A DNA stretch of 64,000 bases from Minisyncoccota bacterium (GTDB taxonomy: Bacteria; Patescibacteriota; Minisyncoccia; Phycocordibacterales; UBA6065): NCBI GenBank assembly GCA_041661645.1, contig JBAZUA010000002.1:19670-83669 (forward strand), read 5' to 3'. The translations under genes were made by a program, and so were the position numbers. The first letter of the stretch is position 1. Each line of letters begins with the position of its first letter. Shown piece after piece: positions 14,500-36,504 of the stretch. Below the pieces are notes generated by a model that worked only from the letters and a program-made list of their open reading frames with translations, had not been told where the DNA came from and ran no database searches.

Positions 14500-14539
14500 G
14501 ACAGGTCCCGAGCGATATAAACTAAACTCAACTTGGTTG
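14500..14539 (+). repeat. 40-bp direct repeat matching the flank of tRNA-Gln. This is the distal boundary of the island.
   Basis: gacaggtcccgagcgatataaactaaactcaacttggttg differs at 2 of 40 positions from 36397-36436. The 36397-36436 copy includes the last 6 nt of the tRNA-Gln gene. The sequences diverge completely outside the 40 bp. Confidence 0.7.
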
Positions 14540-14543
14540 ACCC

Positions 14544-14563
14544 TCTGGGACGATGTTGGAACC
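14544..14563 (+). repeat. Direct repeat C, copy 1 (tctgggacgatgttggaacc).
   Basis: Identical 20-mer at 15666-15685. The pair brackets a 1.1-kb segment holding one gene and two hairpins. Confidence 0.5.
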
Positions 14564-14673
14564 TTTCTGCCTGAAAGCGGTAATTGACATATAGGAATAT
14601 GATGATATTGTACCGCCAGGCTAGAACCCTGAAAAAACTTCACACAAACCACACAAATACGGAGGATCATTCC

Positions 14674-15438
14674 ATGGAATACACTTCAAGTTGCGCTTTT
14701 GTAGCACAGGGCGATATCGTAGTCGGCATCTCGTTTGGATCAGAGCCCTGCAGCGAGCACGAAAATGGGCATGGTGGGCTAAGGGAGGCGTTCGGCATTC
14801 CCCAAGAGTTGACCCGGGAAGTCTGCGGGATCGATGCCCGAACGATTACCAGGAGCCATCCGAAACTTCGGCTGATCGAGGCAGGGAATGTCTCATACCT
14901 CCTGTGTCCGCCCAATGAGACGGTCTACAAGGACATCTCGAATGAGCACATCGACCACATGGTTGGCTTTCTTCCTGGAAAAGGAGTTTCCGGCGCGTGG
15001 GACGACAGCTCTTTCGCGATTCGAATCGCTGGCGAGCATGCCCCATTCCTGAGACGCCTGCACGAGGCTTTTGAGGCAAAGGACATCGTCATCTTCCAGT
15101 CCGGCAAGGGCTTTTGCATGCCAGGCCTCTATTTAATTCTGAGGTCTGCCATGCCGAAGGAAAGCATTGAGGGTTTCGCTTCCGCCGATACCTCGCGCCT
15201 GAACCTGGCCGACGCCGTGGACGCATCGGGAATCAAGGAGCGCCTCAAGGCGGCCGGGAAAAAGTATCTCGCGCTCTCGCCTCGGTGGAGAGATGAAGGG
15301 AATGGTCTCTTCCTTCTCTGGCTCAATCCCTGGCACCAGGATGACGATAACTGCGGCTGGTTCACGGTCAGCGACCTCGATGACTGGATTCTCGGAAAGG
15401 GCCGCATTCCCAAGATGAAAGTCTGCTCAACGAGCTAA
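14674..15438 (+). CDS. Hypothetical protein (254 aa).
   Basis: An internal ATG preceded by a GGAGGA Shine-Dalgarno sequence. The track ORF at 14584 starts further upstream. I recognise no motif. Repeat C flanks it. Confidence 0.5.
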   Translation: MEYTSSCAFVAQGDIVVGISFGSEPCSEHENGHGGLREAFGIPQELTREVCGIDARTITRSHPKLRLIEAGNVSYLLCPPNETVYKDISNEHIDHMVGFLPGKGVSGAWDDSSFAIRIAGEHAPFLRRLHEAFEAKDIVIFQSGKGFCMPGLYLILRSAMPKESIEGFASADTSRLNLADAVDASGIKERLKAAGKKYLALSPRWRDEGNGLFLLWLNPWHQDDDNCGWFTVSDLDDWILGKGRIPKMKVCSTS

Positions 15439-15445
15439 ACGTTCT

Positions 15446-15481
15446 CACACCCACAGGTTTCGACCTGTGGGTGTTTTTTTG
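15446..15481 (+). terminator. Rho-independent terminator.
   Basis: acacccacagg-tttcga-cctgtgggtgt followed by a T7 run. Confidence 0.7.
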
Positions 15482-15609
15482 CCACCCTTTCCATCGACCC
15501 TTACAGGGTCAGTACGGGTTTCCCATTTCTTCGGAATTGGAATTCCTCAGAAATATGGGAGAACCCTTTCGATTCCAAGACGCGGGTCCATTGGACCCGC
15601 TTCCGTGAG

Positions 15610-15659
15610 ACAAACAAAAGAAAGGCCCCGTCATGCGACGGGGCCTTTCTTTTGTTTGT
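15610..15659. repeat. Perfect 23-bp-arm palindrome (acaaacaaaagaaaggccccgtc-atgc-gacggggcctttcttttgtttgt).
   Basis: Read directly. It is unusually long for a terminator and ends 7 nt before repeat C copy 2. Confidence 0.6.
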
Positions 15660-15665
15660 TGGCCG

Positions 15666-15685
15666 TCTGGGACGATGTTGGAACC
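15666..15685 (+). repeat. Direct repeat C, copy 2.
   Basis: Identical to 14544-14563. Confidence 0.5.
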
Positions 15686-15888
15686 CTGATTACCAGATAC
15701 CCTCTAGACGCTAAAAACAGATAAACTATTGACTTATTTAGAATCGTATATCCGTCTGAAAAATCTAAGTTCTAAAATATGCCTTTATAGAGCCATATAA
15801 TGGTAAAGTACATAGACGATCGTAACTTTATCTTGATTTAGACGCTTAAAAGTGCTATTCTGTAGGTACTAATAATCATTTAAACACC

Positions 15889-16428
15889 ATGTCCACAAAG
15901 AAATTCCTCGATCTGTATGAGTTCATAGACCGAGCGGTCAGAAGCAGGAAGTACCCCGAAAGCACAGCGCAGGGGCTTAGGGCGGCCCTTAAACTTTTTG
16001 AAGCCGAGCTGAATGAAGATGAAACGGCTTCTCTGGATGTGTTCAGGCAGAACATTGAACAAATTTATCAGAGCGTTGCCACCAATAACGGTAAACAGTA
16101 TAGCGCAGGATCACTCGCCACCTATAAATCTCGAATAGTAAAGGTGCTCGGCGACTATGAGAAGTATGGCATCGATCCGACCAAGATGGCAAGTTGGTCT
16201 CCAAAACTCATAACTCGAAGCCCGAAGAAGCAGGAGGAAAAAGTTTCTTCGGGAGAGAGCTCTGATCCGCAAGATGATGTGCCGTCTGTATCAGCTCAGG
16301 TGGGTATGCATAAGATTGAACTCGCCCTCCGACCAGATAAGAAGTTCGTTATTATCATCCCTCGAGATATAACTGTCGATGAGGCGAAGATAGTAAAGTC
16401 GGTTCTTGATTCTTTGACGAAAGAGTAA
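15889..16428 (+). CDS. Hypothetical protein (179 aa).
   Basis: ATG start after an AT-rich promoter-like region. A 10-bp-stem hairpin follows at about 16447-16473. I recognise no motif. Confidence 0.45.
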   Translation: MSTKKFLDLYEFIDRAVRSRKYPESTAQGLRAALKLFEAELNEDETASLDVFRQNIEQIYQSVATNNGKQYSAGSLATYKSRIVKVLGDYEKYGIDPTKMASWSPKLITRSPKKQEEKVSSGESSDPQDDVPSVSAQVGMHKIELALRPDKKFVIIIPRDITVDEAKIVKSVLDSLTKE

Positions 16429-16914
16429 GTCTTTGAGCATAAAGAACTGCCGTCTAATTTCTTAGACGGCAGCCCTGGGTGCTCAATACACCCCTGCAGA
16501 TTATTCACGATGGAAAGCGAGTGAAGCCTCAACGTAAGGTCGCCTCGCATCCCATGACCTTTCGGCTAAACCAGTATAGCCAAAAGGCTAATTCAGTCAA
16601 AGTTTAATGTATTCATACACAGTTAGAATTGAAATGCACAGCAACGTATTTCTGAACTTCTCACTTCTTCACATCAAGATGGCGGGTGAGGGTTTCAGCA
16701 GAACGATCGTGGCGGATAATGCTGTTGAGTACCATCTTCCGAGGGCGACTTATGTCATCCGTGGGACCCATCTTTCTTTGTCTCAGGTCCTAGAGGCTGC
16801 AACACGCGCCTTGGCGGGCACAGGACAGACGGGTGAGGTGCTCGTCAGTCAGACAAGTACTTGGAGGTGGAGTGGTCTTGCTCCAGTTAAGCGGTAACTT
16901 AAACGAATAAAAAA

Positions 16915-16953
16915 CTCCGTCGTGGCCCCTGGAAGCCACGACGGAGTTTTTTT
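16915..16953. terminator. Bidirectional intrinsic terminator.
   Basis: ctccgtcgtggc-ccctggaa-gccacgacggag with a 5' A-run and a 3' T7 run. Confidence 0.7.
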
Positions 16954-16964
16954 GCTGCCTTGAT

Positions 16965-17297
16965 TTACTTAATCTGGTTTCTAAGTTTTGCACCATTAAC
17001 TATTTCACTAATTGCTCTGGCGATTTCTTCAACACGTGTCTCGATAAGTTGGTTTGAAAATCTTTTAGTTAAGATATCATCACCATCAGAGTAGTGGTCA
17101 CGTTTTAGATCTGCGAGGATTTGCTTTGAATCGATATAGTGCTGTATTCCATCAATCTCAATAAATAGTTTTGCATCTGGGATGTATAAATCAACATGCT
17201 TATGTCCATCCCAGTACTCTGTCTTGACCTCAACACCTCTTTTCCTTAGCGCCTCCGCCAGTGCAATAGTCTGTTTTGTTGGTACGATAATTGGCAT
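16965..17297 (-). CDS. DUF559-like endonuclease-fold protein (Vsr/MutH-like restriction-endonuclease-like fold).
   Basis: YWDGHKHVDLYIPDAKLFIEIDGIQHY fits the DUF559 core (D...EVDG..H). The gene is AT-rich. Confidence 0.5.
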   Translation of the reverse strand: MPIIVPTKQTIALAEALRKRGVEVKTEYWDGHKHVDLYIPDAKLFIEIDGIQHYIDSKQILADLKRDHYSDGDDILTKRFSNQLIETRVEEIARAISEIVNGAKLRNQIK

Positions 17298-17405
17298 GGG
17301 ATACTAATTTGTATGCTACACTATAGTATGTAGAACCATGGTTAGCAACTGGCTACACTTTCGGTGTGGCTATAAACAAGCAAATACTCGTCCACTTCGG
17401 AAAGC

Positions 17406-18734
17406 GTGTCGGCAAAGGCTGTCGGTAGGCCAGTGTTCAACGAGCTTGTGAAGATGATTGTCTTGGGAAAGGCCGATGCGATTCTCTGTTGGAAGCTCGA
17501 TAGACTTGCGAGGAACTTCATTGACGGAGGACTTGTGATCGATTCTCTACAAAGGTCTGTCATTAAAGAAATAAGAACCTACGAATCAATACATCTTCCA
17601 AGCGATAACGTCCTCATGCTTGCCGTTCAACTTGGAATGGCGAATCAGTACATCAGGGATTTGAGCGTGAACGTGAAGAGAGGGAATCGAGAGAAGCTTT
17701 CCCGTGGCGGTTGGCCGAATCACGCCCCGTTCGGGTACTTGAATAACAAAGCGGACAAAACCATCGTCATCGACCCAATTAGGGCAAAGTACGTCCTGCG
17801 TACCTACGAGCTGTATCTATCGGGTACTCATGGCCTGAGAGATATTGAGAAAATTCTTTACGAAGAAGGGTTGCGGTCTAAGTCAGGAAAGCGAGTGCTC
17901 ATAAACCAGATTCACAGGATTCTATCCAGTCCCTTCTACACGGGCCTCATGGTCAGGGACGGAAAGTATTACGAGGGAAAGCACGAGCCAATTATCTCCA
18001 AGGAGACTTTCGACCGAGCGCAGGACATCCTGAACGACAAGGCCCGCCCAAAATCCAAGACTCTCTTCTTTCCGCTTCGTGGCTTCCTCAGATGCGGGAA
18101 TTGCGGTTGCGCCCTCACGTCCTCGCTCAAGAAGGGTCATCACTATTATTACTGCACCAACGGCAAGAAAATCTGCACCGAGCACAAGACATATCTCAGG
18201 GAGGTTAAGCTTTATTCCGTTCTGTCAGAGATATTCGGACATCTCGATTTTACCGAGCGAAAGATAGAGCTCATGTATCAGTCGGCGAAGGAAAGAACGG
18301 GCATCGATAGCACGTATTCGGAAAGGATAATAGACGGTCTTCAAACGAGCCTAGAATCGCTCAAGCCGAAGGAATCTAGGATACTCGACACTTTCCTCGC
18401 AGAACAGATTTCAAAAGAGCTGTACGACCAGAAAAGCCTCGCAATGCAGAACGAGCGAATCGCCCTGACGAAGCAGTTGAAAGAGGCCCAGTCGAAACAA
18501 ACTGCCGTAGCTTTGGAACCCATCAAGGAAGTCTTTTTAACGGCCAGCAGAGCCAAGAAAGAGTTTTTGGATGGAGATGACGCCAAAAAACACACGATTC
18601 TCAAAAACCTACTTTGGAACCTTTCCATCAAAGACAAAAAGGTGGCTTCGTTGAAGCTTAAAGATGTGTTTGAGGTTATGAGGAAAGCACCGAAAACCGA
18701 CGATATTTCTACTCTGTTGGCGTTCTCGGGATAG
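17406..18734 (+). pseudogene. 5'-truncated large serine recombinase. The catalytic Ser region is missing. The recombinase domain, zinc ribbon and coiled-coil are retained.
   Basis: It aligns with the intact paralog at 32653-33924 from GRPVFNELV / QRPVFKQLL onward. An in-frame TAA lies 11 codons upstream, so the roughly 85 N-terminal residues including the YARxS nucleophile are absent. The track start is a GTG. The C-terminus runs into repeat A and repeat B. Confidence 0.6.
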
Positions 18735-18786
18735 AACCAGACTGTGCCAATCAGGGCAAGGTGGTTCGGTCGTCGGTCACTCCATC

Positions 18787-18807
18787 AAATCGACCCGTCC
18801 TGAGCGA
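18787..18807 (+). repeat. att-like core repeat B, copy 2.
   Basis: Identical to 13765-13785. It lies 52 nt after the recombinase stop codon. Confidence 0.55.
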
Positions 18808-18812
18808 CCTGT

Positions 18813-19205
18813 TTATAGCTTGGAAACTAGTTCTTTAAGTTTCGCCGACGATTCGCGGGCAAGGAACTCCTCCTTAGTAAGCCATTCGAACTGGTCATGT
18901 TCATAGCTTAGGACTACGTTCGTGGAAACTGCATAAGCTTTGTATCCTATGCCGATCCAATATTCCTTCTTCTTGTTATATGAGCCTATTGCGTCAACAA
19001 GCTGTAGATCTTTGACCTCGATACCGACCTCTTCTTGTATTTCTCTCAACATGCTCACTTTTAGGTCTTCGCCTTCCTCAACTTCTCCACCTGGGAGGTC
19101 CCATGTAAGAGGCCTGCTTGGATCAGTCGCCGAGCGGCGTATGGCCAAAATCTTTCCTTCCTTATTCAGGATCGCTGTCTTTTGAGAGGCGTTGATGTTG
19201 GTCAT
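18813..19205 (-). CDS. NUDIX hydrolase.
   Basis: Nudix box GGEVEEGEDLKVSMLREIQEEVGI. Confidence 0.75.
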   Translation of the reverse strand: MTNINASQKTAILNKEGKILAIRRSATDPSRPLTWDLPGGEVEEGEDLKVSMLREIQEEVGIEVKDLQLVDAIGSYNKKKEYWIGIGYKAYAVSTNVVLSYEHDQFEWLTKEEFLARESSAKLKELVSKL

Positions 19206-19218
19206 GCTGGAAATCAGA

Positions 19219-19608
19219 TTAAGCCTTCAAGCTACCATCAAGAAAAGCTTTCAAGCCGATAAGATCCTTTTTCCCGTGATCGTAGAAATAGGTATTGATT
19301 CCCGCAGATCGAGCACTCTCTACCGCCTCTATGCTGTGCTCAAAGTAAACGACATCATTCTTGCTCAACTTGAAATGGCCGAGCATCAGCTCGAAGTACT
19401 TTGGATCGGTCTTCATGGGATTGCGTCTGAGGGTGAAGACTTCAAATGGCACCTTGTTCAATCCGAACTGCTCGAATTTATCATCGGGTGCGTTTGTGAG
19501 GATTATCTTTGTGTTGGGATACGAATCGAGCAGTACGCGCATCTCCTCGAAGATTTTTCCCTGATCTGAAACAAAGCAATCTACCGCGTCTACTAATATG
19601 GTTTTCAT
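19219..19608 (-). CDS. HAD-superfamily hydrolase-like small protein.
   Basis: The C-terminal FEHSIEAVESARSAGI resembles the HAD-IA motif FEDSxxGxxAAxAAG. The N-terminal ILVDAVDCF is a degenerate motif I. Confidence 0.4.
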   Translation of the reverse strand: MKTILVDAVDCFVSDQGKIFEEMRVLLDSYPNTKIILTNAPDDKFEQFGLNKVPFEVFTLRRNPMKTDPKYFELMLGHFKLSKNDVVYFEHSIEAVESARSAGINTYFYDHGKKDLIGLKAFLDGSLKA

Positions 19609-19624
19609 TAATTCAGTATACCAA

Positions 19625-19643
19625 ACCGACCTATCCTAAGCGA
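19625..19643 (+). repeat. att-like core repeat B, degenerate copy (accgacctatcctaagcga).
   Basis: It shares 15 of 19 positions with copy 1 and the upstream ataccaaa context. With the 18787 copy it brackets the NUDIX+HAD pair. Confidence 0.4.
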
Positions 19644-19649
19644 TGATTT

Positions 19650-20006
19650 TTAGTATTCTCGCTTCTCAAAATTTATTTTTAGAGATACTAGAAAGTTTGT
19701 GAACCAAGAGCTGTAAAAGCAAAGATATGTAATCGCTATTAGATCGAATAGGTAGAAAAAGACCTTATGCTTAGCAGGAAAGGAAGTAATCTGAAACACC
19801 GCTGAAATTAAAAGTGTGATTATTGCTCCGGCCCATACCGCGAAAGAATCTCTGCTCTCCTTGCCTCTGGTCACGATGGCCGATTTCCCTCGGGTTAGGT
19901 CTATCCAGCCAGTGAATATCAAAGTTATCAAGATGACTGCCTGTAGGATTGTAAACCAGAGCTGATCACTGGTTAAAAGTCTTGCAATATAATATACGTT
20001 TTCCAT
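19650..20006 (-). CDS. Hypothetical membrane protein.
   Basis: The track ORF starts at a TTG (20057). An internal ATG gives a protein with about 4 transmembrane segments. The gene is AT-rich. Confidence 0.35.
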   Translation of the reverse strand: MENVYYIARLLTSDQLWFTILQAVILITLIFTGWIDLTRGKSAIVTRGKESRDSFAVWAGAIITLLISAVFQITSFPAKHKVFFYLFDLIAITYLCFYSSWFTNFLVSLKINFEKREY

Positions 20007-20075
20007 TTCTTCGGTTGGTTTATAAAAGTGACAATAGTGACACGCAAGCTTCTTCAATATTACACTCGACTGTCA

Positions 20076-20642
20076 CTAATTATAGACGCACAGCCCGTCG
20101 ATAATAGGGTTTATCACTGAATAGACTTGCCAGATGATGAGACTCGCGCCGAGGCCGTAGGTAACGAGGGCGAGCCATGAGTGCCTGCCCTGGTTCGCTT
20201 CCTTGAAGACATTCACGATTCCTTTACGTCTCCACTCCTCTTTGGCGTGCTCGTCGCCAAACAGCTCCCTGAACATTGAGCGCCCGAACTGGGCTATTAC
20301 ATACAGCCAGCCGATGCCTATGAGTGTCGTTACGGAATCATTCACCGTCCGTGCGGCCTCGGGCAGGTCGCAGTAGGATTGGCCGATGTAGATTATCAGG
20401 CTGAGGCCGACGCTGGCGGCGAGGAGGGATCGGAAGACGGCGTAGCCCGCCATGAACCAGAGAATTGAGAAGAACGTCCCGAAGACGATCAGGAACACCG
20501 TGGGCCCGATGGCCGTGAAAAACGGCGTCGCGATCATGAAGGTCGAGACGGCCGCAACACACAGGACGAATACGGAGAACGTCTTCAGATTCTTCTTGTT
20601 CGCCCTTATCTTTTCTGACAGTAGGTTTTTTATGAATTTCAT
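20076..20642 (-). CDS. Hypothetical polytopic membrane protein (188 aa).
   Basis: ATG start and several hydrophobic helices. I recognise no motif. Confidence 0.45.
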   Translation of the reverse strand: MKFIKNLLSEKIRANKKNLKTFSVFVLCVAAVSTFMIATPFFTAIGPTVFLIVFGTFFSILWFMAGYAVFRSLLAASVGLSLIIYIGQSYCDLPEAARTVNDSVTTLIGIGWLYVIAQFGRSMFRELFGDEHAKEEWRRKGIVNVFKEANQGRHSWLALVTYGLGASLIIWQVYSVINPIIDGLCVYN

Positions 20643-20646
20643 GGGT

Positions 20647-21957
20647 TTATCTTTTCTTTAGGCTCTTGCGACTGATCTTCTCCTCGGTTTCTTTCTTCTT
20701 CGCCTCCTCGCGGGCTTTAACCTCCTCTGGAGGCACGACGCGCAGGTGCTCCATTATTCCATATCCCTTAAGGTGCTCGCGCGGATCGACTAGCCTGTAC
20801 CACTTCTCGACGGTCGTCCAGTCCTTGCCGTCCTTCCTCTGCCTCACGGACTTCGATTCGACGAGATCCTTCGGCGGGAGGAAGCCTTTGTTGTCCTCCA
20901 GCAGGAAAAGCTCGACGTGGACGCCCTCGCCGTACTTGCTGACCGTTCTCGCCCTGATGATGCCGTCTCGGAGCCATTTCCTCAGCGTCTGGCCCTTGAC
21001 GTTGAAATAGTATTCCAGATCGAACTTGCTGTACCAGCTGCCCTTGTCGCTCGCGAGGGAGGCGGGTATCTCCCCGCCGTCGACGGCCTTCTGGCAGACG
21101 AGGCACTTGATGCCGTGTTCGTCGTACCAGTTGTCGCCCTCGGGGGTATGGTCGCCGCAGACGAAGCAGGTGTATCCCGCTCCCTCTAGATGGAAACCCT
21201 TCGGGTTCTGCCTGAGCCTCTCCGCGCGGGCATCCTCCTTCTTCTTGAATTCCTCTATGAACGCCGATGCCCGCTCCATGTTCCACTTCTCCTCCTGGAA
21301 CTTCCTGCCCTCCTCGTCGTTCATGCAGAAGCGGTCGCGGTCCCTGGAGAAGTTCTCGTCGATCTCTTCCTCCTTCCTTTGCGACCATTCGATCTCGTCT
21401 TTCTCCGCGTACCCGCACTTCGGGCAGGTGCGCGTCGTGAGAAGCCTCTTACCGTCGTCGTCAGTTTCGCTCTTGAGAGGGGCGTTGCAGTGCAGGCAGA
21501 GGCTCGGCTTTACCCTCCATTCTTCTCCGTCCGAAAAGAACGCTCGGCGTGGCACGCACTCGTTAGCGCAGTCGTACATGAACAGCACTCGGTCTGGCTT
21601 TCCCGACTCGGGCCACAGCTCCTTGAACGTGGGCTTCAGGCGGTTCCTGCACGCGAGGCATCGGATGTCCTCTGGCGCTCGGGCCGATTCGTACAGTTCG
21701 TCTCTCTCCTTGTCGGCGTCCATCCAGTCGCGGATTGTCTTCTCCTTGTTCAGGTACCTTTCTCCCATCTGGATGTGCAGGTACCAATCCAGAGCGACCC
21801 TCCTTATCCGAGCCGCCTCTTTCTTGTCGATTTTATCGTCTACAGGTAAGTCCGTGTCGTCTCTATCGAAAGACTGTTCTGTCTCACGGCACCGCTTGAC
21901 GGTGTGGCGGTCGTAGAGATCTATGTAGTGCTGCTTGGACTTTAAGTGCTTCTCCAT
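20647..21957 (-). CDS. Multi-zinc-ribbon protein, hypothetical (436 aa).
   Basis: At least three CxxC...CxxC pairs: CLACRN...CANEC, CLHCNA...CPKCGY and CFVCGD...CLVCQK. The N- and C-termini are charged. It is 4 nt from the next gene, so it is in an operon. Confidence 0.5.
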   Translation of the reverse strand: MEKHLKSKQHYIDLYDRHTVKRCRETEQSFDRDDTDLPVDDKIDKKEAARIRRVALDWYLHIQMGERYLNKEKTIRDWMDADKERDELYESARAPEDIRCLACRNRLKPTFKELWPESGKPDRVLFMYDCANECVPRRAFFSDGEEWRVKPSLCLHCNAPLKSETDDDGKRLLTTRTCPKCGYAEKDEIEWSQRKEEEIDENFSRDRDRFCMNDEEGRKFQEEKWNMERASAFIEEFKKKEDARAERLRQNPKGFHLEGAGYTCFVCGDHTPEGDNWYDEHGIKCLVCQKAVDGGEIPASLASDKGSWYSKFDLEYYFNVKGQTLRKWLRDGIIRARTVSKYGEGVHVELFLLEDNKGFLPPKDLVESKSVRQRKDGKDWTTVEKWYRLVDPREHLKGYGIMEHLRVVPPEEVKAREEAKKKETEEKISRKSLKKR

Positions 21958-21972
21958 GGTCTCTGAATTAAC

Positions 21973-22848: not shown

Positions 22849-22867
22849 GTGAAGCGGTGAGTTTATT

Positions 22868-24361: not shown

Positions 24362-24370
24362 AGGAGCGGG

Positions 24371-28397: not shown

Positions 28398-29711
28398 ATG
28401 AAGAAAAAAACAATGCTACATGCGGGTCTTTTCGAGCGCGACATAAAAATCGAGCTGGTGCCCGCGCGCCTCTTGAAGCCCGCCGCATACAACCCGCGAA
28501 AGTGGGATGATGCGGCCGCTACCCAGCTGACCAGGAGCATCAGGGAGTTCGGTCTCGTGGACCCCATCCTCGCGAACGGCTCTCCCGAAAGGAGGAACGT
28601 CGTCATCGGAGGGCATTTCCGCCTGAAGATCGCCAAGGATCTCGGGTACACGGAAGTTCCCGTGGTCTATCTGAATATTCCAGACGAGCGAAAGGAGAAA
28701 GAGCTGAACATCAGGCTAAACAAGAACACTGGCGATTGGGATTTCGACAAGCTCAAATCCTTCGACTTTGATTTTCTGGCAGATATCGGGTTCGATAAAA
28801 TTGAGCTATCGGATCTCTGGGACAAGGATTTGGAAACAGCGGATGACGAGTTCGATGTCGAAGGCGAGCTCAAGAAGATAAAAAAGCCCAAGACAAAGCT
28901 CGGCGACCTGATCATTCTCGGCAATCATAAGCTTGCGTGTGGCGATGCGACAGACCCCTCGGTTCTTATAAGGCTTTTCGGCAAGGAAAGGGCCTCGATG
29001 ATCTATTCCGACCCCGTATATAACATCAAGATCAATTACGGTGGCGGCATCAGTGGCAGGCAGAATTACGGCGGAAACGTAAACGATGACCGTTCGGAAT
29101 CAGAGTATAAGGAGTTTTTGAAGAAGAGCATGGTGAACGCCTTGTCGGTTACGAAGGAAAACGCCCATGTCTTTTACTGGTCGGACCAGAAGTATATCGG
29201 CCTCATTCAGGAACTCTACCGAGAGTTGAAGATCGAGAACAAGCGCGTCTGCCTGTGGATCAAGAACGCGCAAAACCCGACTCCGGGCGTCGCGTTCAAC
29301 AAGTGCTACGAACCGTGCACTTATGGCGTGAGGGGCAAACCGTACATATCGAAGAGCGTTCAAAATTTGAACGAGGTGATGAACAAGGAAATCACCACGG
29401 GAAACAATCTGCTCGCCGAGGCCTTGGATCATCTGGATCTGTGGATGGTGAAGCGACTGTCTGGAAAGGAATACGAGCACGCCACGTCGAAGCCTCCCGT
29501 GCTTCACCAGAAGGCCATTCGGCGTTGCACGAAATCGGGCGACATCATACTCGACAGCTTCTCCGGCTCGGCGAGCACGATGATCGCGGCAGAGCAGTTG
29601 AAAAGGAGGGTGTACGCGGTCGAGCTCGAACCAGCCTTCTGCGACCTCGCCATAAGGCGATACGAAAAGCTTACTGGCGTTAAGGCGAAGATCATCCATG
29701 AAGAAGCATAA
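28398..29711 (+). CDS. ParB-like nuclease domain fused to a beta-class N6A/N4C DNA methyltransferase.
   Basis: N-terminal ParB/Srx motif (VIGGHFRLKIAKDLG). Motif IV DPVYNI precedes motif I ILDSFSGSAST, which is the beta-class order. It lies immediately upstream of terminase genes, which is the usual phage arrangement. Confidence 0.75.
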   Translation: MKKKTMLHAGLFERDIKIELVPARLLKPAAYNPRKWDDAAATQLTRSIREFGLVDPILANGSPERRNVVIGGHFRLKIAKDLGYTEVPVVYLNIPDERKEKELNIRLNKNTGDWDFDKLKSFDFDFLADIGFDKIELSDLWDKDLETADDEFDVEGELKKIKKPKTKLGDLIILGNHKLACGDATDPSVLIRLFGKERASMIYSDPVYNIKINYGGGISGRQNYGGNVNDDRSESEYKEFLKKSMVNALSVTKENAHVFYWSDQKYIGLIQELYRELKIENKRVCLWIKNAQNPTPGVAFNKCYEPCTYGVRGKPYISKSVQNLNEVMNKEITTGNNLLAEALDHLDLWMVKRLSGKEYEHATSKPPVLHQKAIRRCTKSGDIILDSFSGSASTMIAAEQLKRRVYAVELEPAFCDLAIRRYEKLTGVKAKIIHEEA

Positions 29712-30090
29712 AATCAAAAACGGGTTCTTGGCGGAACTGAGGAGAATTCCCATTGTTCAGGTCGCCTGTGAAAGATCTGGAATATCGAGGAATAGCGTAT
29801 ATCGATGGAGGAACGAAGATGCCGTGTTCCAAAAGGAAATGGACAAGGCCTTGGAGGAGGGCGAGGCTCTGGTGAACGACATGAGCGAAAGCCAGTTGCT
29901 GACGATGATAAGAGAAAAGAACTGGTCTGCTGTCAGCTTTTGGTTGCGTCATCGAAACCCGAAGTTCCGTGAGCGCATAGAGATAGCGGGATCCGTAAAG
30001 ACGATTCAGGAGCTACCGCCCGATCAGAAAGAGATGGTCACCAATGCCCTTAAATTAGCAGATTTAGCCTTGAGAAAAAATGAACAATAA
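29698..30090 (+). CDS. Terminase small subunit-like HTH protein.
   Basis: N-terminal HTH (GISRNSVYRWRNEDAVFQKEM). It overlaps the start of the large terminase gene by 11 nt. Confidence 0.5.
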   Translation: MKKHKIKNGFLAELRRIPIVQVACERSGISRNSVYRWRNEDAVFQKEMDKALEEGEALVNDMSESQLLTMIREKNWSAVSFWLRHRNPKFRERIEIAGSVKTIQELPPDQKEMVTNALKLADLALRKNEQ

Positions 30091-31582
30091 CCTACTCGAC
30101 AAAGAAGCACTGAATTTAATCCTGACCAACCGAGGCGTCCGCCAGCAGGTGACATATCAGAGCCACCTGCTGTTCTTCCACGTTTTCTTTTCGCACTACG
30201 TGAAATACCCCATAGCGGAGTTCCAGAAGGAGATCTTCCGCATCACAGAGGACGCATCGAACACTTTGGCCTGTATTGTCTCGTTCAGGGGATCGAGCAA
30301 GTCCACCCTCGTCACCTTCTCCTACTCGCTCTGGGCGGTCCTCGGCGTGCAGCAGAAGAAGTTCGTGCTCATCGTATGCCAGACGCAGTCCCAGGCCCGT
30401 CAGCACATGGCAAACCTGAAACACGAGCTTGAGCAGAATGAGACGCTGAAGAGCGACCTCGGGCCGTTTCGAGAAGATATCGGTGTCGGCGAGTGGGCGA
30501 TGTCATCCTTGGTATTCAAGAACACGGGCGCGCGTATCATGGTGGCGTCGATGGACCAGAGCATCCGAGGGGCGAGGCACCGACAGTACCGCCCGGACCT
30601 CATAATCCTCGACGACATCGAGGACGTGAACTCGGTGAAGACGCACGAGGGGCGCTCCAGGGTGTCGGACTGGTTCTCGCGCGAGATCGTCCCGCTGGGA
30701 GACATCGGGACCAGGATCGTAATCGTCGGAAACCTCCTGCACGAGGACTCATTCGTGATGCAGTTGAAGCGCAAGATAGAGCGCAAGGAATTGTCAGGCG
30801 TCTACCGTTCGTTTCCCCTCATCGACAGCGACGGCGGATGCCTGTGGCCCGGGAAGTTCGATTGCGAGGAGAAGATCGAGCAGTTGCGCCAGAGCGTAGC
30901 GAACGAGAGCGCATGGCTCATGGAGTATCTGCTCCTGCCCGTGTCCGACGCATCGCGTGTCATACACCCCGAGTGGATCGCGTTCTACGATGAGATGCCC
31001 GAGAGGTGCGAGGAAAACGAGTATCGAGGGGCCTCCGTCGGGATAGACCTCGCGATATCGGAAAGGGATCGGGCGGACTGCACCGCCATGGTGACGGCCC
31101 ACGTCTTCGGCTACGGCAAGGACATGAGGATCTACATAGAGCCGAATCCCGTGAACGACCGCATGGACTTCTCTATATCCATCGACACGGCGAAGATGCT
31201 TTCCAAGGGGCACGCGCATAACAATCGCAACGCCCAGATATACGTCGAGAACAATGGGTACCTGGAGGTGTTCCCCGAGACGCTCCGTAGGGAGCCTGGA
31301 ATCCCCGTGGAGGGAATCCCGTCCCGTGGCGACAAGCGGACGAGGCTCGTCGTGACTGGCGTGCCCGTTAAGGCGGGACACGTGCTGTTCCCAAGAAGTG
31401 GGGCCGAGGAGCTTCTCATGCAACTGACGGGGTTCGGCTCCGAGAGGCACGATGACCTCGTGGACGCGTTCTCCATCGTCGTGGGAGAGGTCGTCAAACG
31501 GAATCGCCCTAGGCCCAATTTCGACATCACCTTCAGCGGCGTGATGCCGATTACCGCTGGTCTGAGGAATAAGATCTTCTAG
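30080..31582 (+). CDS. Phage terminase large subunit.
   Basis: ATPase motifs (FRGSSKST Walker A-like and DLIILDDIED Walker B). The C-terminal RNase-H-like nuclease carries acidic residues (GIDLAIS...DCTAMV...DDLVDAF). Confidence 0.75.
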   Translation: MNNNLLDKEALNLILTNRGVRQQVTYQSHLLFFHVFFSHYVKYPIAEFQKEIFRITEDASNTLACIVSFRGSSKSTLVTFSYSLWAVLGVQQKKFVLIVCQTQSQARQHMANLKHELEQNETLKSDLGPFREDIGVGEWAMSSLVFKNTGARIMVASMDQSIRGARHRQYRPDLIILDDIEDVNSVKTHEGRSRVSDWFSREIVPLGDIGTRIVIVGNLLHEDSFVMQLKRKIERKELSGVYRSFPLIDSDGGCLWPGKFDCEEKIEQLRQSVANESAWLMEYLLLPVSDASRVIHPEWIAFYDEMPERCEENEYRGASVGIDLAISERDRADCTAMVTAHVFGYGKDMRIYIEPNPVNDRMDFSISIDTAKMLSKGHAHNNRNAQIYVENNGYLEVFPETLRREPGIPVEGIPSRGDKRTRLVVTGVPVKAGHVLFPRSGAEELLMQLTGFGSERHDDLVDAFSIVVGEVVKRNRPRPNFDITFSGVMPITAGLRNKIF

Positions 31583-31584
31583 GC

Positions 31585-32289: not shown

Positions 32290-32386
32290 GTTATATATCT
32301 AAAGCTATTAATATCGTGGCGGGTAAATACAAAAAGCCCACCACTAGGTAGAGCCGAGGCTCATATCTCAAGTTTCCCTGAAATAG

Positions 32387-32429
32387 CACAAGACGTGACC
32401 CCTAATGATGGGTTCTTTATCGTCTTGTG
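32387..32429. repeat. Imperfect palindrome upstream of the intact serine recombinase, a candidate recombination site.
   Basis: cacaagacg...cgtcttgtg are 9-bp arms. They enclose gacccc...gggttc within a 260-bp AT-rich non-coding stretch. Confidence 0.25.
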
Positions 32430-32652
32430 ACTAACTGTATTCGTACCGTGCCGACACGTTGCCGTGTGGGGTTAGGTAACTATGTTGTATTTACTGAATA
32501 TTGATTCAGTGTGTTCATACTATCGCTAAAATAAGGCTTTGTTAAGGTAGTTGCCAACAAGCGGAGGCTTAGCAAAGCTATCTGTCTCTGGCATTAATGG
32601 ATGTATGGAAATACAAGCCACCGCCCTCATGGGCAAATCGACCTTGGCCCCG

Positions 32653-33924
32653 ATGGCGAAAGTAAGGTATTGCCTCTACGCCCGCAAGTCCACCGAGCAG
32701 GAGGAGAAGCAGATCCTGTCGATTGACTCGCAGATCAAGGAGATGCTCTCGCTCGCGCAACGTGAGGGTCTCGAAATTGTCGATACTCGAAAGGAGTCAC
32801 ATTCCGCCAAGGCCTCGGGACAACGGCCTGTATTCAAGCAGTTGTTGGAGGACGTTAGATCAGGGAAGTTCGACGGCATACTCGTCTGGCACCCAGACAG
32901 GCTCTCCAGAAACGCGGGAGACCTCGGCTCGGTCGTCGATCTCATGGACGAGAAGCTCCTCGTCGAGATCCGTACCTACGGGCAGAAGTTCTCGAACAAC
33001 CCGAACGACAAGTTCCTCCTGATGATCCTCTGTTCGCAGGCGAAGCTCGAGAACGACAACAAGAGCGTCAACGTGAAGCGGGGCCTCAGGGCGAGGTGCG
33101 AGATGGGTCTGTGGCCCGCGCAGGCACCAACGGGATACGTCAACAGCTCGAACGTCAGCGAAATCTGCGTGGTCCACGTCGACCCCGTAAAGGCACCGAT
33201 CATCAAGCAGGTGTTCGAGAGGGTCGCCTACGAGGGCTGGGGAGGCAAGAGGGCCTATCTCTGGCTCAGGGACGAGCTGAGGTTCACCGCGAAGAGCGGA
33301 AAGCCCCTGACGCTGAGCAACGTGTTCATGATCCTCCACAACCACTTCTACTACGGCATATTCGAGTACCCTAAGAACAGCGGGAAATGGTATCAGGGAA
33401 AGCACACGCCCATCATCTCGAAAGACCTCTTCGATCAGGTACAGAAGCAACTCCACTGCCAGAGGAAGGTGAGGGACACGAACAAGGAGTTCGCGTTCAC
33501 AAAACTGATGTCATGCGGGCTGTGCGGATCAGGCATAACCGCACAGGATAAGTACAAAAACCTCGCGGACGGCACGGTGAAGAAGTACATCTACTACGGG
33601 TGCACGAAGATTCGGGACAAGGACTGCGGGAACGGATATCTGGAGGAGGCCGAGCTTATAAGGCAATTACTCGAACTGATGGACGACGTAGACTTAGATC
33701 AGTCTGGTCTGAGGAAAAAGCTTCAATCTGAAATCGAGAGGCACAAGAAGTTCAGCGTCGGGATTCTCGGTGGGAAGAAGGAGGATTATTCAGCAAAGGA
33801 TATGGATATCAGAAATTATGCAAAGTATCTTTTGAGGGAGGGCAATCTTTTTGAGAAAAGAGATCTGTTGGTTTGCTTGAAAAGCAAGATAGTTCTTAAA
33901 GAAAAGAAAGTTGCCTTGGGATGA
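32653..33924 (+). CDS. Large serine recombinase (integrase/resolvase family), intact.
   Basis: Catalytic region VRYCLYARKSTEQEEKQ, the recombinase domain, a Cys4 zinc ribbon (CGLCGSG...YYGCTKIRDKDCG) and a coiled-coil. The track ORF begins at a TTG at 32551. The first ATG directly preceding the catalytic domain is about 32653. Confidence 0.8.
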   Translation: MAKVRYCLYARKSTEQEEKQILSIDSQIKEMLSLAQREGLEIVDTRKESHSAKASGQRPVFKQLLEDVRSGKFDGILVWHPDRLSRNAGDLGSVVDLMDEKLLVEIRTYGQKFSNNPNDKFLLMILCSQAKLENDNKSVNVKRGLRARCEMGLWPAQAPTGYVNSSNVSEICVVHVDPVKAPIIKQVFERVAYEGWGGKRAYLWLRDELRFTAKSGKPLTLSNVFMILHNHFYYGIFEYPKNSGKWYQGKHTPIISKDLFDQVQKQLHCQRKVRDTNKEFAFTKLMSCGLCGSGITAQDKYKNLADGTVKKYIYYGCTKIRDKDCGNGYLEEAELIRQLLELMDDVDLDQSGLRKKLQSEIERHKKFSVGILGGKKEDYSAKDMDIRNYAKYLLREGNLFEKRDLLVCLKSKIVLKEKKVALG

Positions 33925-33947
33925 TATAAGTTTATGGCCATTGCCGA

Positions 33948-34988
33948 TTATTTACGGCCAGATGATTCATAAAATGGATTATATAGAACCATGGTCATAG
34001 TACGCATCATTGCCCGTTGTGTAGCCTGTATGTAGGCAACAGCTTTACTAAATTCACCGTCTTTTATCATCGTCCGGATCTCTTTTCTAATATTCGCAAA
34101 CTCTTCAGACTCGAGAGTTCTCTCTAAACTCTGCAGTACTTCTCGTTCGGTTAAATCAGGCATACTCATTATGCCCTCTGTTAATGAATTGGCGTGGCTG
34201 TTCGCTAAACATATGGTTGAAAGTACTTCATAAGTATTGTTTGTAAAAATATCTTTAATTCTGTCAACCTGATCCTTCTCGAGAAACCCTCCGGCAGGAA
34301 AGCCGAATGCAAATTTATCAAATAAAGGGAGGGGGTGAAACGACATTGGGAAATTAACTACAAAGCCCATTGCTGTTAATCGCAGGGCTTTAAGTAGAAA
34401 ATCTAGCCCTACTTTTAAGCCAACCTCACTGAATTCGGTCACGTTGCTATTTCTTAATGCCGTATGAGTGTGCGTTGCTCCCTGGGTATGCATGAATCCC
34501 GATAACTCCTTGTATAGAGATTGAATTTCGATGTTCCATTGCAATTTATCATTGAGAGTTTTGAATTCAATATTTTTTGCAGGCAGTGCTTTTAACATTT
34601 CGCTAATTGTGGGCGTGTTGGCCTTTCCATCTAGCCAGTTTTTAAAATTATCCCTGTCCTCATTTACAAAATGATACAAAGCAAAAACCTGTAATTCTAT
34701 AAAACTCCTTATTGATCGGAAACTGTCCTTATAGAATCCTGTTAGAAGCAACAATATGCCTGAATTTATATCTTGCTCGGCCTCAAAGAATACATGGTGC
34801 CATGGATGGATTGTGGTAAATTCTTCACCTGTACCGCCAAATATTGGAATGGCGAATAGAAGTTCGTGAGACCCGTTTAGAGCTCTGCGTATGTCATCCG
34901 ATATTTCTTTATGTGCTTCGAGCCACGCAGCACTTCGATCAGCTGTTTTGCCGAGTGAGGCTGCCTGTTTGAAATAATTATCTAGCAT
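33948..34988 (-). CDS. Hypothetical protein (about 346 aa), AT-rich.
   Basis: The track start at 35057 is a TTG. The internal ATG (MLDNYFKQ) leaves a 28-nt gap to the upstream gene. I recognise no motif. Confidence 0.45.
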   Translation of the reverse strand: MLDNYFKQAASLGKTADRSAAWLEAHKEISDDIRRALNGSHELLFAIPIFGGTGEEFTTIHPWHHVFFEAEQDINSGILLLLTGFYKDSFRSIRSFIELQVFALYHFVNEDRDNFKNWLDGKANTPTISEMLKALPAKNIEFKTLNDKLQWNIEIQSLYKELSGFMHTQGATHTHTALRNSNVTEFSEVGLKVGLDFLLKALRLTAMGFVVNFPMSFHPLPLFDKFAFGFPAGGFLEKDQVDRIKDIFTNNTYEVLSTICLANSHANSLTEGIMSMPDLTEREVLQSLERTLESEEFANIRKEIRTMIKDGEFSKAVAYIQATQRAMMRTMTMVLYNPFYESSGRK

Positions 34989-35016
34989 TTCATTTATTGT
35001 CTTATTTGAAATAACC

Positions 35017-36207
35017 CTAAACTTTGATGTTGGGAAGGATTGATTCCGTAATATCAAAGGTCATGTCAATTTTTGATGAACCTGCGAGCGAAATTGATTC
35101 AGAGGCTAGTCTTAATAAGAACTTCAATGAAGCAATATCTGCCAAGACCTTAGCTTTGCTTGCTTCCCATATTGGATTTTGTGAGTTTGCGCCGCCGCTA
35201 TGCCGACCTGCTAAGGATAATGAATATTGAACCGTACGGGAAATAAAATCTTCTCTCGCTATATCTTCTTGAGATTTAATACTATTGCCAAACTGTGAAG
35301 CGGTATAGCCATCTGGAACTTGTAGTGACGAATAAGTGTTCTTCAGGGTTATTTTTTTACTAGAGTGATTTTTTATCAAAAAATGGACCGTGATTGTGAA
35401 GTTATCCATTACGCCATCATTAGTTCTTGAGCCGGGATTTAGTTCGAGTTTTTCAAATTCAATCGCAAGGCCCACAGAATCATCATTCTTGGTCGGTGTC
35501 TCTTTTAAAATTCCTCTCGTTGAGAGCACCTTTCTTCCATCTGCAAAAGTAATAGTAGTTTCAATTAGAGGAACTATTTCTGTAGGTTCCTGCCGACCAT
35601 CTTCTAATCTTATTGACCCGTTCTCTCTATCGACAATCACATGCGCTTTCTGGGTGTCGCCGTTTCTTCTACCCAAAATAAAGTGATGGTCATCGCCTTG
35701 TGTTCTTGATTCCAAAAACACATCATCTGTTTTAAATCTATTTTTAATTGTTTTACCGCGCTCGGTAGTATTCTGGTCACTTTTAAGTAACAGCCTCAGG
35801 CTCCTTTTTTCACGTAGTTCTAATTCTAACAGAGCTCGATTGTGGAGACTGGTTTTTATATCAGGATTGTCATTCCTGCGTACGATTTCCTCCAACTCTT
35901 CAAAAGTTCTTTTTGTTAAGTCAGTAAAGTCTTGTTGTTTATCTTTGGATAAAAATTTATCTATTCTATCTGGTGTTGATGAAAAGCCTTCGTGGTAAAT
36001 ATCACCACCTTCATTTTCAATTAAAAGAAATCCCTCGGATTTTAATTGATGTAAAAAACCTTTAATATGCTGAATTTCTTCTGGCTGAATATTGTTATGA
36101 TCGTGTGCGATCATAAGTTCGCAGACTCGGATTGTTTTTATGTACCCACCACTATGCGTCTTAAAGAAAGACATTATTTCGTTTTTTGATGGATATATGA
36201 GATTCAT
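35017..36207 (-). CDS. Hypothetical protein (396 aa), AT-rich, co-operonic with 33948-34988.
   Basis: ATG start. I recognise no motif. It is the first gene inside the island next to the tRNA-proximal att repeat. Confidence 0.5.
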   Translation of the reverse strand: MNLIYPSKNEIMSFFKTHSGGYIKTIRVCELMIAHDHNNIQPEEIQHIKGFLHQLKSEGFLLIENEGGDIYHEGFSSTPDRIDKFLSKDKQQDFTDLTKRTFEELEEIVRRNDNPDIKTSLHNRALLELELREKRSLRLLLKSDQNTTERGKTIKNRFKTDDVFLESRTQGDDHHFILGRRNGDTQKAHVIVDRENGSIRLEDGRQEPTEIVPLIETTITFADGRKVLSTRGILKETPTKNDDSVGLAIEFEKLELNPGSRTNDGVMDNFTITVHFLIKNHSSKKITLKNTYSSLQVPDGYTASQFGNSIKSQEDIAREDFISRTVQYSLSLAGRHSGGANSQNPIWEASKAKVLADIASLKFLLRLASESISLAGSSKIDMTFDITESILPNIKV

Positions 36208-36351
36208 AAATAGCGTCTAAAATTTGTTACCTACTTAAAATTCAAACGAATAAATGCTTGTCCTGAATCGCTGATTTTGAATGATGAGATGCAGGTATTG
36301 CGTACGGATAAACTAATCCTGAAAGGATTTAGTCAGCTTATCACTTTATAA

Positions 36352-36380
36352 GTAAAAGGCACCCTGATGGTGCCTTTTAC
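36352..36380. terminator. Hairpin between tRNA-Gln and the island, a terminator candidate.
   Basis: gtaaaaggcacc-ctga-tggtgccttttac. Confidence 0.4.
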
Positions 36381-36396
36381 TTATCTCTCAAAAGAC

Positions 36397-36436
36397 GACG
36401 GGTCCTGAGCGATATAAACTAAACTCAACTTGGTTG
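36397..36436 (+). repeat. 40-bp direct repeat, tRNA-proximal copy. It covers the tRNA-Gln 3' end (6 nt) plus 34 nt of downstream flank.
   Basis: gacgggtcctgagcgatataaactaaactcaacttggttg matches 14500-14539 at 38 of 40 positions. Confidence 0.7.
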
Positions 36437-36504
36437 CCAGACTTGGAATCGAACCAAAATTTTCGCTTTCAGAGAGCGACGTCCTACCGTTAGACGATCT
36501 GGCA
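36431..36504 (-). tRNA. tRNA-Gln (anticodon CUG), 74 nt with encoded CCA.
   Basis: Folded by hand from the reverse complement. The acceptor stem TGCCAGA/TCTGGCA gives U1:A72, as in bacterial tRNA-Gln. The D-arm is GTCT...GGAC. The anticodon stem is TCGCT/AGCGA with loop CTCTGAA, so the anticodon is CTG. The T-arm is TTTGG-TTCGATT-CCAAG. The discriminator is A and CCA follows. Confidence 0.8.

Follow-up and report, generated by a model that had tools for sequence, protein, structure and literature searches.

Organization of the tRNA-Gln locus

Here we analyzed a 64,000-nt window (the whole stretch of contig JBAZUA010000002.1 under study) from the metagenome-assembled genome of a Paceibacterota bacterium (Patescibacteria), in which an intact tRNA-Gln(CUG) gene is followed by a block of foreign DNA that most likely holds at least three or four mobile units, inserted one after another by serine recombinases. 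An earlier note on this DNA had described a single 21.9-kb island between two 40-bp direct repeats. Its account of the gene content as serine recombinases, a ParB-methyltransferase (ParB-MTase), terminase genes and AT-rich cargo agrees with ours, which comprises an intact and a truncated serine recombinase, the ParB-MTase, the small and large terminase genes (TerS and TerL) and AT-rich genes, and its view that the tRNA-Gln 3' end is a site-specific integration hotspot with mobile DNA between the repeats was likewise upheld. The features are listed in Table 1, read along the strand of the tRNA gene.

Table 1. Features of the tRNA-Gln locus in the window, ordered from the tRNA gene outward; units are those proposed in the text, and a slash marks the break at each junction.
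Feature	Position	Strand	Remarks
tRNA-Gln(CUG), intact	36431-36504	-	ARAGORN; Rfam 61.3 bits
Junction J1	36432		tRNA ...TCTGGCAAC/CAAGTTGAG... (TR_R)
TR_R	36402-36432	-	31-nt element-side arm CAAGTTGAGTTTAGTTTATATCGCTCAGGAC; core of right 40-mer
Terminator hairpin	36348-36384		
Two AT-rich cargo genes	33948-36207	-	369 and 396 aa; GC 0.37-0.39; slot between TR and recombinase
LSR1	32551-33924	+	Intact large serine recombinase, reads towards the tRNA; Resolvase, Recombinase and Zn-ribbon domains
LOOT-like RNA	32349-32478	-	Rfam RF03000, 41.7 bits; antisense, directly upstream of LSR1
TerL	30080-31582	+	Large terminase
TerS	29698-30090	+	Small terminase
ParB-N6/N4 methyltransferase	28398-29711	+	
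Cargo of putative unit 4	18813-28335	-	97-aa open reading frame (ORF), SNF2 helicase (1236 aa, BrxH/DrmD-like), DUF2779/Cas4-like nuclease, M23 peptidase, 436-aa zinc-ribbon protein, two membrane proteins, HAD-like, NUDIX
Z_B	18716-18807	-	92-nt element closing putative unit 4
Junction J2	18716		Z_B ...GAACGCCAAC/AGAGTAGAAATATCG... (3' end of truncated recombinase gene)
Putative unit 3	15693-18734	+	Element remnant (second recombinase family)
Truncated large serine recombinase	17406-18734		Unit 3
DUF559 gene	16965-17297		Unit 3
ORF	16607-16897		Unit 3
ORF	15889-16428		Unit 3
X	15658-15685	-	Distal arm GGTTCCAACATCGTCCCAGACGGCCAAC
Junction J3	15658		X ...GACGGCCAAC/AAACAAAAGAAAGG... (hairpin, then Y)
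Hairpin h1 and Y element	15487-15659	-	h1 15610-15659; Y 15487-15603
Terminator	15440-15480		Beside the 284-aa ORF
284-aa ORF	14584-15438	+	Function unassigned; GC 0.545
X'	14536-14563	-	Repeat of the X arm (25/27), immediately next to the left 40-mer
Junction J4	14536		X' ...GAGGGTCAAC/CAAGTTGAG... (TR_L)
TR_L	14505-14535	-	Core of left 40-mer; start of putative unit 1
Cargo of putative unit 1	13789-14462	-	94-aa and 126-aa genes; GC 0.415
Z_A	13694-13785	-	Second Z element, closing putative unit 1
Junction J5	13694		Z_A ...GAACGCCAAC/TCGCAAAGC..., then host-like genes
154-aa ORF, then NUDIX gene	13150-13614 (ORF)		Host-like genes

The content of guanine plus cytosine (GC) is about 0.57 on both sides of the block and 0.37-0.58 inside it (mostly 0.37-0.53), and the low values continue past the left 40-mer to approximately 13.7 kb, which corrects the boundary drawn before. 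No tyrosine recombinase domain was detected in the 48 ORFs between 10.6 and 37.6 kb (Pfam, with subsets compared to PHROGs and NCBIfam), confirming that a tyrosine integrase is absent. Among phage virion and lysis functions, only TerS and TerL matched head-and-packaging PHROGs; ten other ORFs without a clear Pfam assignment gave no match in the PHROG check of structural genes, and Pfam identified none in the remaining ORFs.

The 369- and 396-aa proteins encoded next to the tRNA gene had no match in Pfam, PHROG, NCBIfam, PADLOC or the PDB, and an exact-protein look-up returned no record of the 396-aa gene. These two proteins and the 284-aa protein were considered as cryptic recombinases and rejected, as none of the three has a sequence match in the same five databases and the slot they occupy is filled by unrelated cargo in sister elements; for the slot between TR and the recombinase, this is the case in L032, L105, L107 and L116 (L numbers denote the loci compared). 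An ORF of 212 aa at 13123-13761 was also discarded as a gene, the gene called in public data being the 154-aa ORF on the opposite strand.

The direct repeats contain a conserved tRNA-proximal arm

The 40-mers at 14500-14539 and 36397-36436 were recovered with the 38/40 identity reported for them, the mismatches lying at positions 4 and 10, and their inner 30-mer is an exact repeat present twice in the window, where 0 matches are expected (100 shuffles). The right copy indeed consists of the last 6 nt of tRNA-Gln(CUG) (CAACCA) and 34 nt of 3' flank. We treat the 3' end of the tRNA gene, ...GGTTCGATTCCAAGTCTGGCAAC, as the host-side half-site (B) and the 31 nt that follow, CAAGTTGAGTTTAGTTTATATCGCTCAGGAC, as an arm termed TR.

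A 40-nt pattern from the tRNA body retrieved 59 genomes from the GTDB set, all of them Patescibacteria (Taylorbacteria, Paceibacterota, Nomurabacteria and similar). The exact 30-mer itself had no match in the GTDB species genomes or in IMG/VR and a single one in the JGI metagenomes (L003). TR follows directly after ...GGCA(A/G)C of tRNA-Gln in L003, L010/L107, L015, L030/L105, L053, L056 and L059 with 26-31 of 31 positions identical; conservation ends abruptly at approximately nt 31, and the genes beyond are unrelated. Where the host has a high GC content, the GC falls after the tRNA, from 0.62 to 0.48 in L010 and from 0.59 to 0.43 in L053. Moreover, TR is found away from a tRNA gene in L025, in a distal copy in L107 and in the left copy of the window, and it is missing from several of the nearest relatives by flanking genes (L051, L017 and L007), in which the tRNA is followed by a hairpin and Y instead.

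These observations bear on the idea that TR is a constrained 3' trailer of the tRNA-Gln transcript encoded by the host, serving as a processing or terminator signal, and that the left copy remains from a duplication of tRNA-Gln. The conservation of TR after tRNA-Gln in at least eight genomes would fit such a role, as would the 5-bp hairpin (GAGCG...CGCTC) that some copies can form, but this hairpin is not kept in the window, L003 or L107. We consider a host trailer very unlikely, since TR is lacking in the near relatives just named, occurs without a tRNA at the three places given above, is accompanied by a drop in downstream GC wherever it is present and the host GC is high, and in its left copy is preceded by X' and no tRNA remnant.

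Where neither TR nor a closely similar arm adjoins tRNA-Gln, the CCA is in most cases not encoded, with a few exceptions such as L009, L036 and L050. Hence, the encoded CCA of the tRNA gene in the window is completed by its junction with TR.

The distal ends of the putative units

The far end of the elements is marked by other conserved sequences. A 92-nt element, Z, ends the LSR1-type elements in L105 and L107 and is present twice in the window; Z_A and Z_B are 74% identical, with 23/23 matches in the last 23 nt (Z3', GGTTCTATCCCGAGAACGCCAAC) and 22/23 in a 5' motif. Z3' matches the 3' end of tRNA-Gln in register at 16 of 23 positions. TR...Z pairs enclose 0-17.6 kb of cargo in seven loci (none in L053, 0.7 kb in L015, 0.9 kb in L059, 2.6 kb in L025, and 0.75 and 17.6 kb in the window); L030/L105 has a fused TR-Z arm as in L053, then cargo, the recombinase and a second, distal Z3' at 10.7 kb. 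The 40-mers are thus not attL and attR of one 21.9-kb island, as had been proposed, their core being the tRNA-proximal arm while the distal end is Z in the window, L105 and L107. Nor does host DNA begin at the left 40-mer, which is followed by a small TR...Z unit (14535 to 13694, GC 0.415); a homologue (71%) of its 94-aa protein lies 570 nt downstream of tRNA-Gln in L043.

Read from the tRNA gene, L105 and L107 have the order TR, variable cargo, convergent recombinase, methylase gene, a small ORF in the position of TerS, further cargo and Z. The first cargo slot measures 3.4 kb in L105 and 9.5 kb in L107, where it contains copper- and metal-resistance genes, and Z3' is located at 3985 to 3963 in L105 and at 318 to 296 in L107. 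In L107, a second TR (28/31 compared to the first) follows directly after Z3', approximately 20.5 kb from the first and at the start of something new, so the pattern of two repeats recurs in another species.

The second type of distal arm, X, is a 27-nt motif. In L111-L113 it ends second-family elements at tRNA-Gln, and in L060 it stands behind what is left of the 3' end of a second-family recombinase. It also ends an LSR1-family element in L116/L117, with a GC of 0.40 inside, 0.47 beyond X and 0.495 on the tRNA side. The distance from GGTTC to CAAC is 28 nt in X compared to 23 nt in the tRNA. In serine integrases, the outer motif bound by the zinc-ribbon domain has a distance to the centre that is 5 bp greater in attP than in attB (PMC3783163), and the spacing in X appears consistent with this rule.

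The motif CGACNNGTCCTGAGCGA occurs five times on one strand of the window compared to 0.23 expected (13769-13785, 14499-14515, 18791-18807, 19627-19643 and 36396-36412). It is the outer end of TR as well as the 5' end of Z, and so forms a short direct repeat flanking every TR...Z unit; the copy at 19627 is degenerate and at no known boundary. A search with a 19-mer of X gave 34 IMG/VR matches, which all fall within a single conserved coding region of unrelated phages with a high GC content and stop after 20 nt; these were rejected as chance. As tRNA-like genes or known RNAs, Z, X and Y had no ARAGORN or Rfam match.

The hairpin and Y may mark the site before insertion

In L017 and L007, whose Pif1 helicases are 70-75% identical to that of the window, the tRNA is followed directly by a long hairpin and then Y, and in L051 (Pif1 83%, with syntenic Zincin and GDSL genes) by a hairpin, a 143-aa gene, X, a second hairpin and Y. 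By blastn, L017 aligns to 15603-15487 of the window (78.6% over 117 nt; L007, 76.6%) and L051 to 15692-15535 (78.8% over 160 nt), while the hairpin beside the tRNA of L051 aligns to 15672-15614 (80%). Judged from these alignments, the hairpin and Y at 15487-15659 would mark the neighbour of the tRNA before insertion. Relative to these three loci, the inserted block therefore spans 15.69-36.43 kb and not 14.5-36.4 kb as had been assumed. The comparison with empty sites suggested earlier was thus informative with regard to relatives, in which the tRNA adjoins the hairpin and Y, although the same strain yielded no empty site.

Y was mapped in nine loci (L007, L017, L019, L024, L034, L035, L049, L054 and L061) at +30 to +77 nt from tRNA-Gln, and in L054 a 16S rRNA fragment follows it. 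It contains an inverted copy of the T-loop and stem of the tRNA (TTCGATTCCAAG) as well as a long palindrome. The 284-aa ORF beyond Y has no homologue near Y at other loci and is either host DNA or cargo of a unit closing in X'. In independent assemblies of the same strain, contigs break at approximately 15498-15512, in the Y palindrome, at 14688 and at 36470 inside the tRNA, which is common to many co-occurring relatives.

Two families of large serine recombinases at tRNA-Gln

LSR1 (large serine recombinase 1) has the domains PF00239 (2.4e-23), PF07508 (2.1e-13) and PF13408 (1.8e-7), and inspection of the translation revealed the catalytic-serine motif YARKSTEQE. The public gene call is 439 aa long, and protein P0001 is 100% identical. 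Its family comprises at least 8000 proteins at E <= 1e-60, the few named ones being from Paceibacterota, Minisyncoccia or Patescibacteria. The nearest relatives on long contigs are P0003 (86%, L105) and P0004 (79%, L106/L107, on the same contig as L010), and the ParB-MTase/TerS/TerL module (28398-31582) is conserved beside LSR1-family genes in L099-L104.

The truncated recombinase has the same domains, but its match to the resolvase profile begins at position 43; about 60 N-terminal residues including the catalytic serine are absent in comparison with full-length homologues of approximately 502 aa, and no upstream frame restores the catalytic-serine motif. Its last six codons are supplied by Z3' (18716-18734), and its sequence is 100% identical to an NCBI protein assigned to a Candidatus Paceibacterota MAG. 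A full-length homologue (76%) is located at tRNA-Gln(UUG) in L110. L116 carries a member of the LSR1 family (68% identical). Serine recombinase genes lie convergent downstream of tRNA-Gln(CUG/UUG) in L028, L032, L105, L107, L110, L111, L115 and L116, and a recombinase remnant is found behind tRNA-Gln in L060, so that the two families occur at at least nine other loci. In L110 (1818-1889) and L111 (11449-11520), the second-family ORFs run through the complement of the tRNA-Gln gene.

In L115, the arm right after tRNA-Gln(UUG) at 12517 contains TTTAGTATC, the motif given for the zinc-ribbon domain of the Listeria LI integrase (PMC3783163); this match may be a coincidence. The LOOT-like RNA of the window has an E-value of 6.8e-5 and scores below the Rfam gathering score of 46.4, and LOOT RNAs of 57.9-78.3 bits are present at the corresponding place in four IMG/VR contigs (L102 2076-2195, L099 2016-2132, L103 1847-1969 and L104 5644-5778), antisense and 100-250 nt upstream of LSR1-family genes. 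A Pif1 helicase gene is found a few kb away, on the opposite side of tRNA-Gln, in the window and four relatives, and in L099 a Pif1 gene (3674-4936; 50% identical to Pif1 of the window at 39262-40971) starts 60 nt after the LSR1 relative.

The recombinase data also bear on the single 21.9-kb island with a 40-bp att core duplicated at its ends by a lost or unrecognized tyrosine-type integrase. A direct repeat of 38/40 with one copy at a tRNA 3' end is what such an island would show, and classical tRNA-end repeats do exist at this locus: L042 has a 22-nt copy (95%) of the tRNA-Gln 3' end at 7138-7159, about 6 kb downstream of the tRNA, which looks like the direct repeat of another element type using the same hotspot. 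However, none of the tested ORFs in the window encodes a tyrosine recombinase, only 6 nt of the tRNA belong to the repeat, and what lies beyond the distal copy is not host DNA but an AT-rich stretch of 0.84 kb that ends in Z as unit 4 does. The native downstream sequence of the tRNA is, moreover, situated within the supposed island at 15487-15659, and the same TR arm travels with orthologous serine recombinases. We therefore regard this model as largely refuted and give it hardly any weight.

Five junctions and a proposed tandem stack of integrative units

Every junction in the window breaks after (G/C)CAAC (J1-J5, Table 1), and this motif is all that the junctions have in common, as their left and right halves pair differently across the window, L105, L107, L110, L111 and L116. 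The right half of J2 matches the sequence after tRNA-Gln(UUG) in L110 at approximately 27 of 29 positions by eye.

The explanation we consider probable, if well short of certain, is that 13694-36436 represents a series of integrative units stacked in tandem, for each of which a large serine recombinase used the 3' end of tRNA-Gln(CUG), or a mimic of it, as the insertion site. Unit 4 would extend from the tRNA/TR_R junction to Z_B (36432 to 18716, 17.7 kb) and contain intact LSR1, the LOOT-like RNA, the ParB-MTase/TerS/TerL module and the helicase and nuclease cargo. Unit 3, from the truncated recombinase to X (18715 to 15658, 3 kb), would be a decayed element of the second family. The hairpin, Y and the 284-aa gene up to X' would make up unit 2 or be host DNA, and unit 1 would comprise TR_L, two AT-rich genes and Z_A (14535 to 13694, 0.84 kb) without a recombinase, after which host DNA would follow. 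The two 40-mers would then be the P' arms of units 4 and 1.

In the attP of a circular element, the P arm (Z3' or X) would resemble the T-loop and acceptor end of the tRNA and TR would serve as the P' arm. Strand exchange, presumably catalysed in unit 4 by LSR1, would take place at a dinucleotide within the common CAAC, which comprises the last part of the acceptor stem, the discriminator and the initial C of CCA. With the crossover confined to CAAC, the tRNA would remain intact, with TR providing its encoded CCA. Beyond the tRNA, the half-site (B') would be different in each case, so that a new element could enter an occupied site and push older ones outward, and the older units would decay to cassettes lacking a recombinase. 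The units nearest to the tRNA would thus be the latest arrivals. If the units are still mobile, the excised circles expected are ...GGTTCTATCCCGAGAACGCCAAC/CAAGTTGAGTTTAG... for unit 4 and ...GTTCCAACATCGTCCCAGACGGCCAAC/CAAGTTGAG... for units 4 and 3 together, with the matching repaired sites tRNA ...GTCTGGCAAC/AGAGTAGAAATATCG and tRNA ...GGCAAC/AAACAAAAGAAAGGCCCC.

Such a stack would also account for the two features that had appeared unusual in the earlier note. As the same end of units 4 and 1, the 40-mers would be element DNA that meets the tRNA at CAAC, and for this reason the repeat consists mostly of tRNA flank. A tyrosine integrase is not required at a site where serine recombinase genes lie behind tRNA-Gln in so many other loci, and a serine recombinase did not have to leave a 40-bp duplication, as there is none.

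On the other hand, one composite element of 20.7 kb (36432 to 15658) may have integrated in a single step, its attP X/TR recombining with an attB of tRNA/hairpin-Y, in which case Z_B and the truncated recombinase would be internal and the left 40-mer together with X' (14505-14563) would be the unrecombined attP of a second, related fragment beyond Y. This reading has a complete set of four sites in its favour, namely the attB-like tRNA/hairpin-Y of L017, L007 and L051, an attL (tRNA/TR), an attR (X/h1) and the attP-like X'/TR_L. It is also in line with the 5 nt of extra, attP-type spacing in X and with L116, where a TR-like arm at tRNA-Gln(UUG) and X delimit the LSR1-family element (68%) and the GC content steps at X. 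However, the elements of the nearest LSR1 orthologues (86% and 79%) end in Z3', with no X within 14.7 and 20.8 kb, and the P' arm belonging to the other recombinase family forms the right half of J2, which makes J2 a junction between two elements. An intact attP in the chromosome would, in addition, require an extra and unspecified route of arrival. We hold the composite element to be possible but doubtful.

The stack of units remains the reading we prefer, and several observations weigh against it. The B' half-site shows no conservation, an unusual trait for a serine integrase. Some dyad symmetry is seen at most of the serine-integrase sites that have been characterised, whereas the best inverted matches at the five junctions (9-11 of 22 per arm) equal those of shuffled controls (10.6-11.2). 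The distance from GGTTC to CAAC in Z3' is 23 nt and thus of attB and not attP type, so Z3' may be a tRNA mimic that is used as a target rather than a P arm. A search for TR, X and Z in six IMG/VR contigs with LSR1 relatives gave nothing above noise. Exact-protein look-ups with the flanking genes and the truncated recombinase yielded same-strain contigs alone; these come from three metagenomes, match the window at 100% and all carry the insert, and no empty site, circular form or free attP was recovered. Finally, the segment with Y and the gene of host-like GC (0.545) is probably host DNA, because Y is widespread beside tRNA-Gln and is succeeded by 16S rRNA in L054; strict accretion would then fail to explain X'/TR_L beyond Y.

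For X'/TR_L, three readings are possible: a hybrid junction that arose by accretion, which requires the Y-containing segment to be an element; the unrecombined attP of an element of the L116 type; or insertion of a TR...Z cassette at X', which would have served as a mimic of the tRNA. For the far end of the LSR1 element of the window there are two candidates as well, Z_B by analogy with L105 and L107 or X by analogy with L116. We also considered a broader proposal, in which the two recombinase families recognise essentially only the tRNA-side half-site (T-loop and acceptor end, or the mimics Z3' and X), thereby allowing repeated integration into integron-like stacks, mobilisation in trans of TR...Z cassettes that hold one or two genes and no recombinase, and regulation of the recombinase gene by LOOT RNA as an antisense regulator. 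This proposal is speculative, and we think it unlikely.

Other features of the window

A YafQ/RelB-type toxin-antitoxin pair (37635-38216) is flanked by the Zincin gene and Pif1 just to the right of the tRNA and is absent from the syntenic stretch of L051. Two palindromic terminator hairpins (56786-56819 and 63828-63861, 91% alike) bracket DNA with a GC of 0.40-0.45 at 57-59 and 61-62 kb, and the stretch between them may be another foreign segment.

Relation to known systems

The closest analogy is the staphylococcal cassette chromosome (SCC/SCCmec), which is inserted by CcrAB/CcrC at the 3' end of rlmH/orfX in staphylococci. As proposed here, a large serine recombinase inserts DNA at the 3' end of one conserved gene that is kept intact, short sequences are repeated at every junction, and tandem stacks as well as 'pseudo' elements without a recombinase occur. 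However, the target in the window is a tRNA gene and not rlmH, the host belongs to the Patescibacteria, and the repeated junction sequence is a 31-nt element arm, while that of SCC is the 15-18-nt integration site sequence. The best NCBIfam model for LSR1 is CcrB (E 1e-39), but since the score is 136.5 bits compared to a cut-off of 900 and the target is tRNA-Gln, LSR1 is not a Ccr orthologue and the element is not a member of SCC.

To our knowledge, characterised serine integrases target protein-coding genes and not tRNA ends, and a literature search brought up no counter-example. With the temperate phages that use such integrases (A118/LI, phiC31, Bxb1 and SPbeta), the elements share a three-domain recombinase, hybrid junctions without a true target duplication, an integrase gene beside attP and, in X, the attP-type spacing of the outer motif (PMC3783163). 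In contrast to these phages, there are no capsid, portal, tail or lysis genes, the sites lack dyad symmetry and the far half of the target is unconserved; with TerS and TerL as the sole phage-like genes, the block is therefore not a complete prophage.

Like the stack, tyrosine-type (P4/lambda-type) islands lie at the 3' ends of tRNA genes, have a low GC content, carry cargo and defence-like genes, include a direct repeat in contact with the tRNA and can form tandem arrays. They differ in having a tyrosine integrase, a repeat that copies the 3' part of the tRNA, and a crossover in the anticodon or T loop, whereas here it would lie at the extreme end of the tRNA. Phage satellites and phage-inducible chromosomal islands are similar in size (10-20 kb) and in carrying an integrase, TerS-like gene(s) and a methylase but no virion genes. 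This likeness is one of gene content alone, and unlike in satellites, neither a helper phage nor a packaging site nor genes for capsid remodelling could be identified.

We found no account of serine-recombinase elements at tRNA-Gln in bacteria of the candidate phyla radiation (CPR) in the literature, the coverage of which was incomplete. What we describe is a known process in a little-studied group and no new mechanism, and its main value lies in correcting how the repeats and the limits of the island are read. The mobile elements of Patescibacteria (CPR) are poorly described, and in their small genomes a stack of 23 kb makes up a sizeable share of the variable genome. The analysis defines a large recombinase family, candidate attachment arms (TR, Z3' and X) and a target, the 3' end of tRNA-Gln, and these arms and their target may be of interest to collectors of serine integrases with natural tRNA targets. 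LOOT RNA, an orphan motif, gains a genomic context through its link to these recombinase genes. If true, a dispensable far half-site would relax a rule of site recognition by serine integrases.

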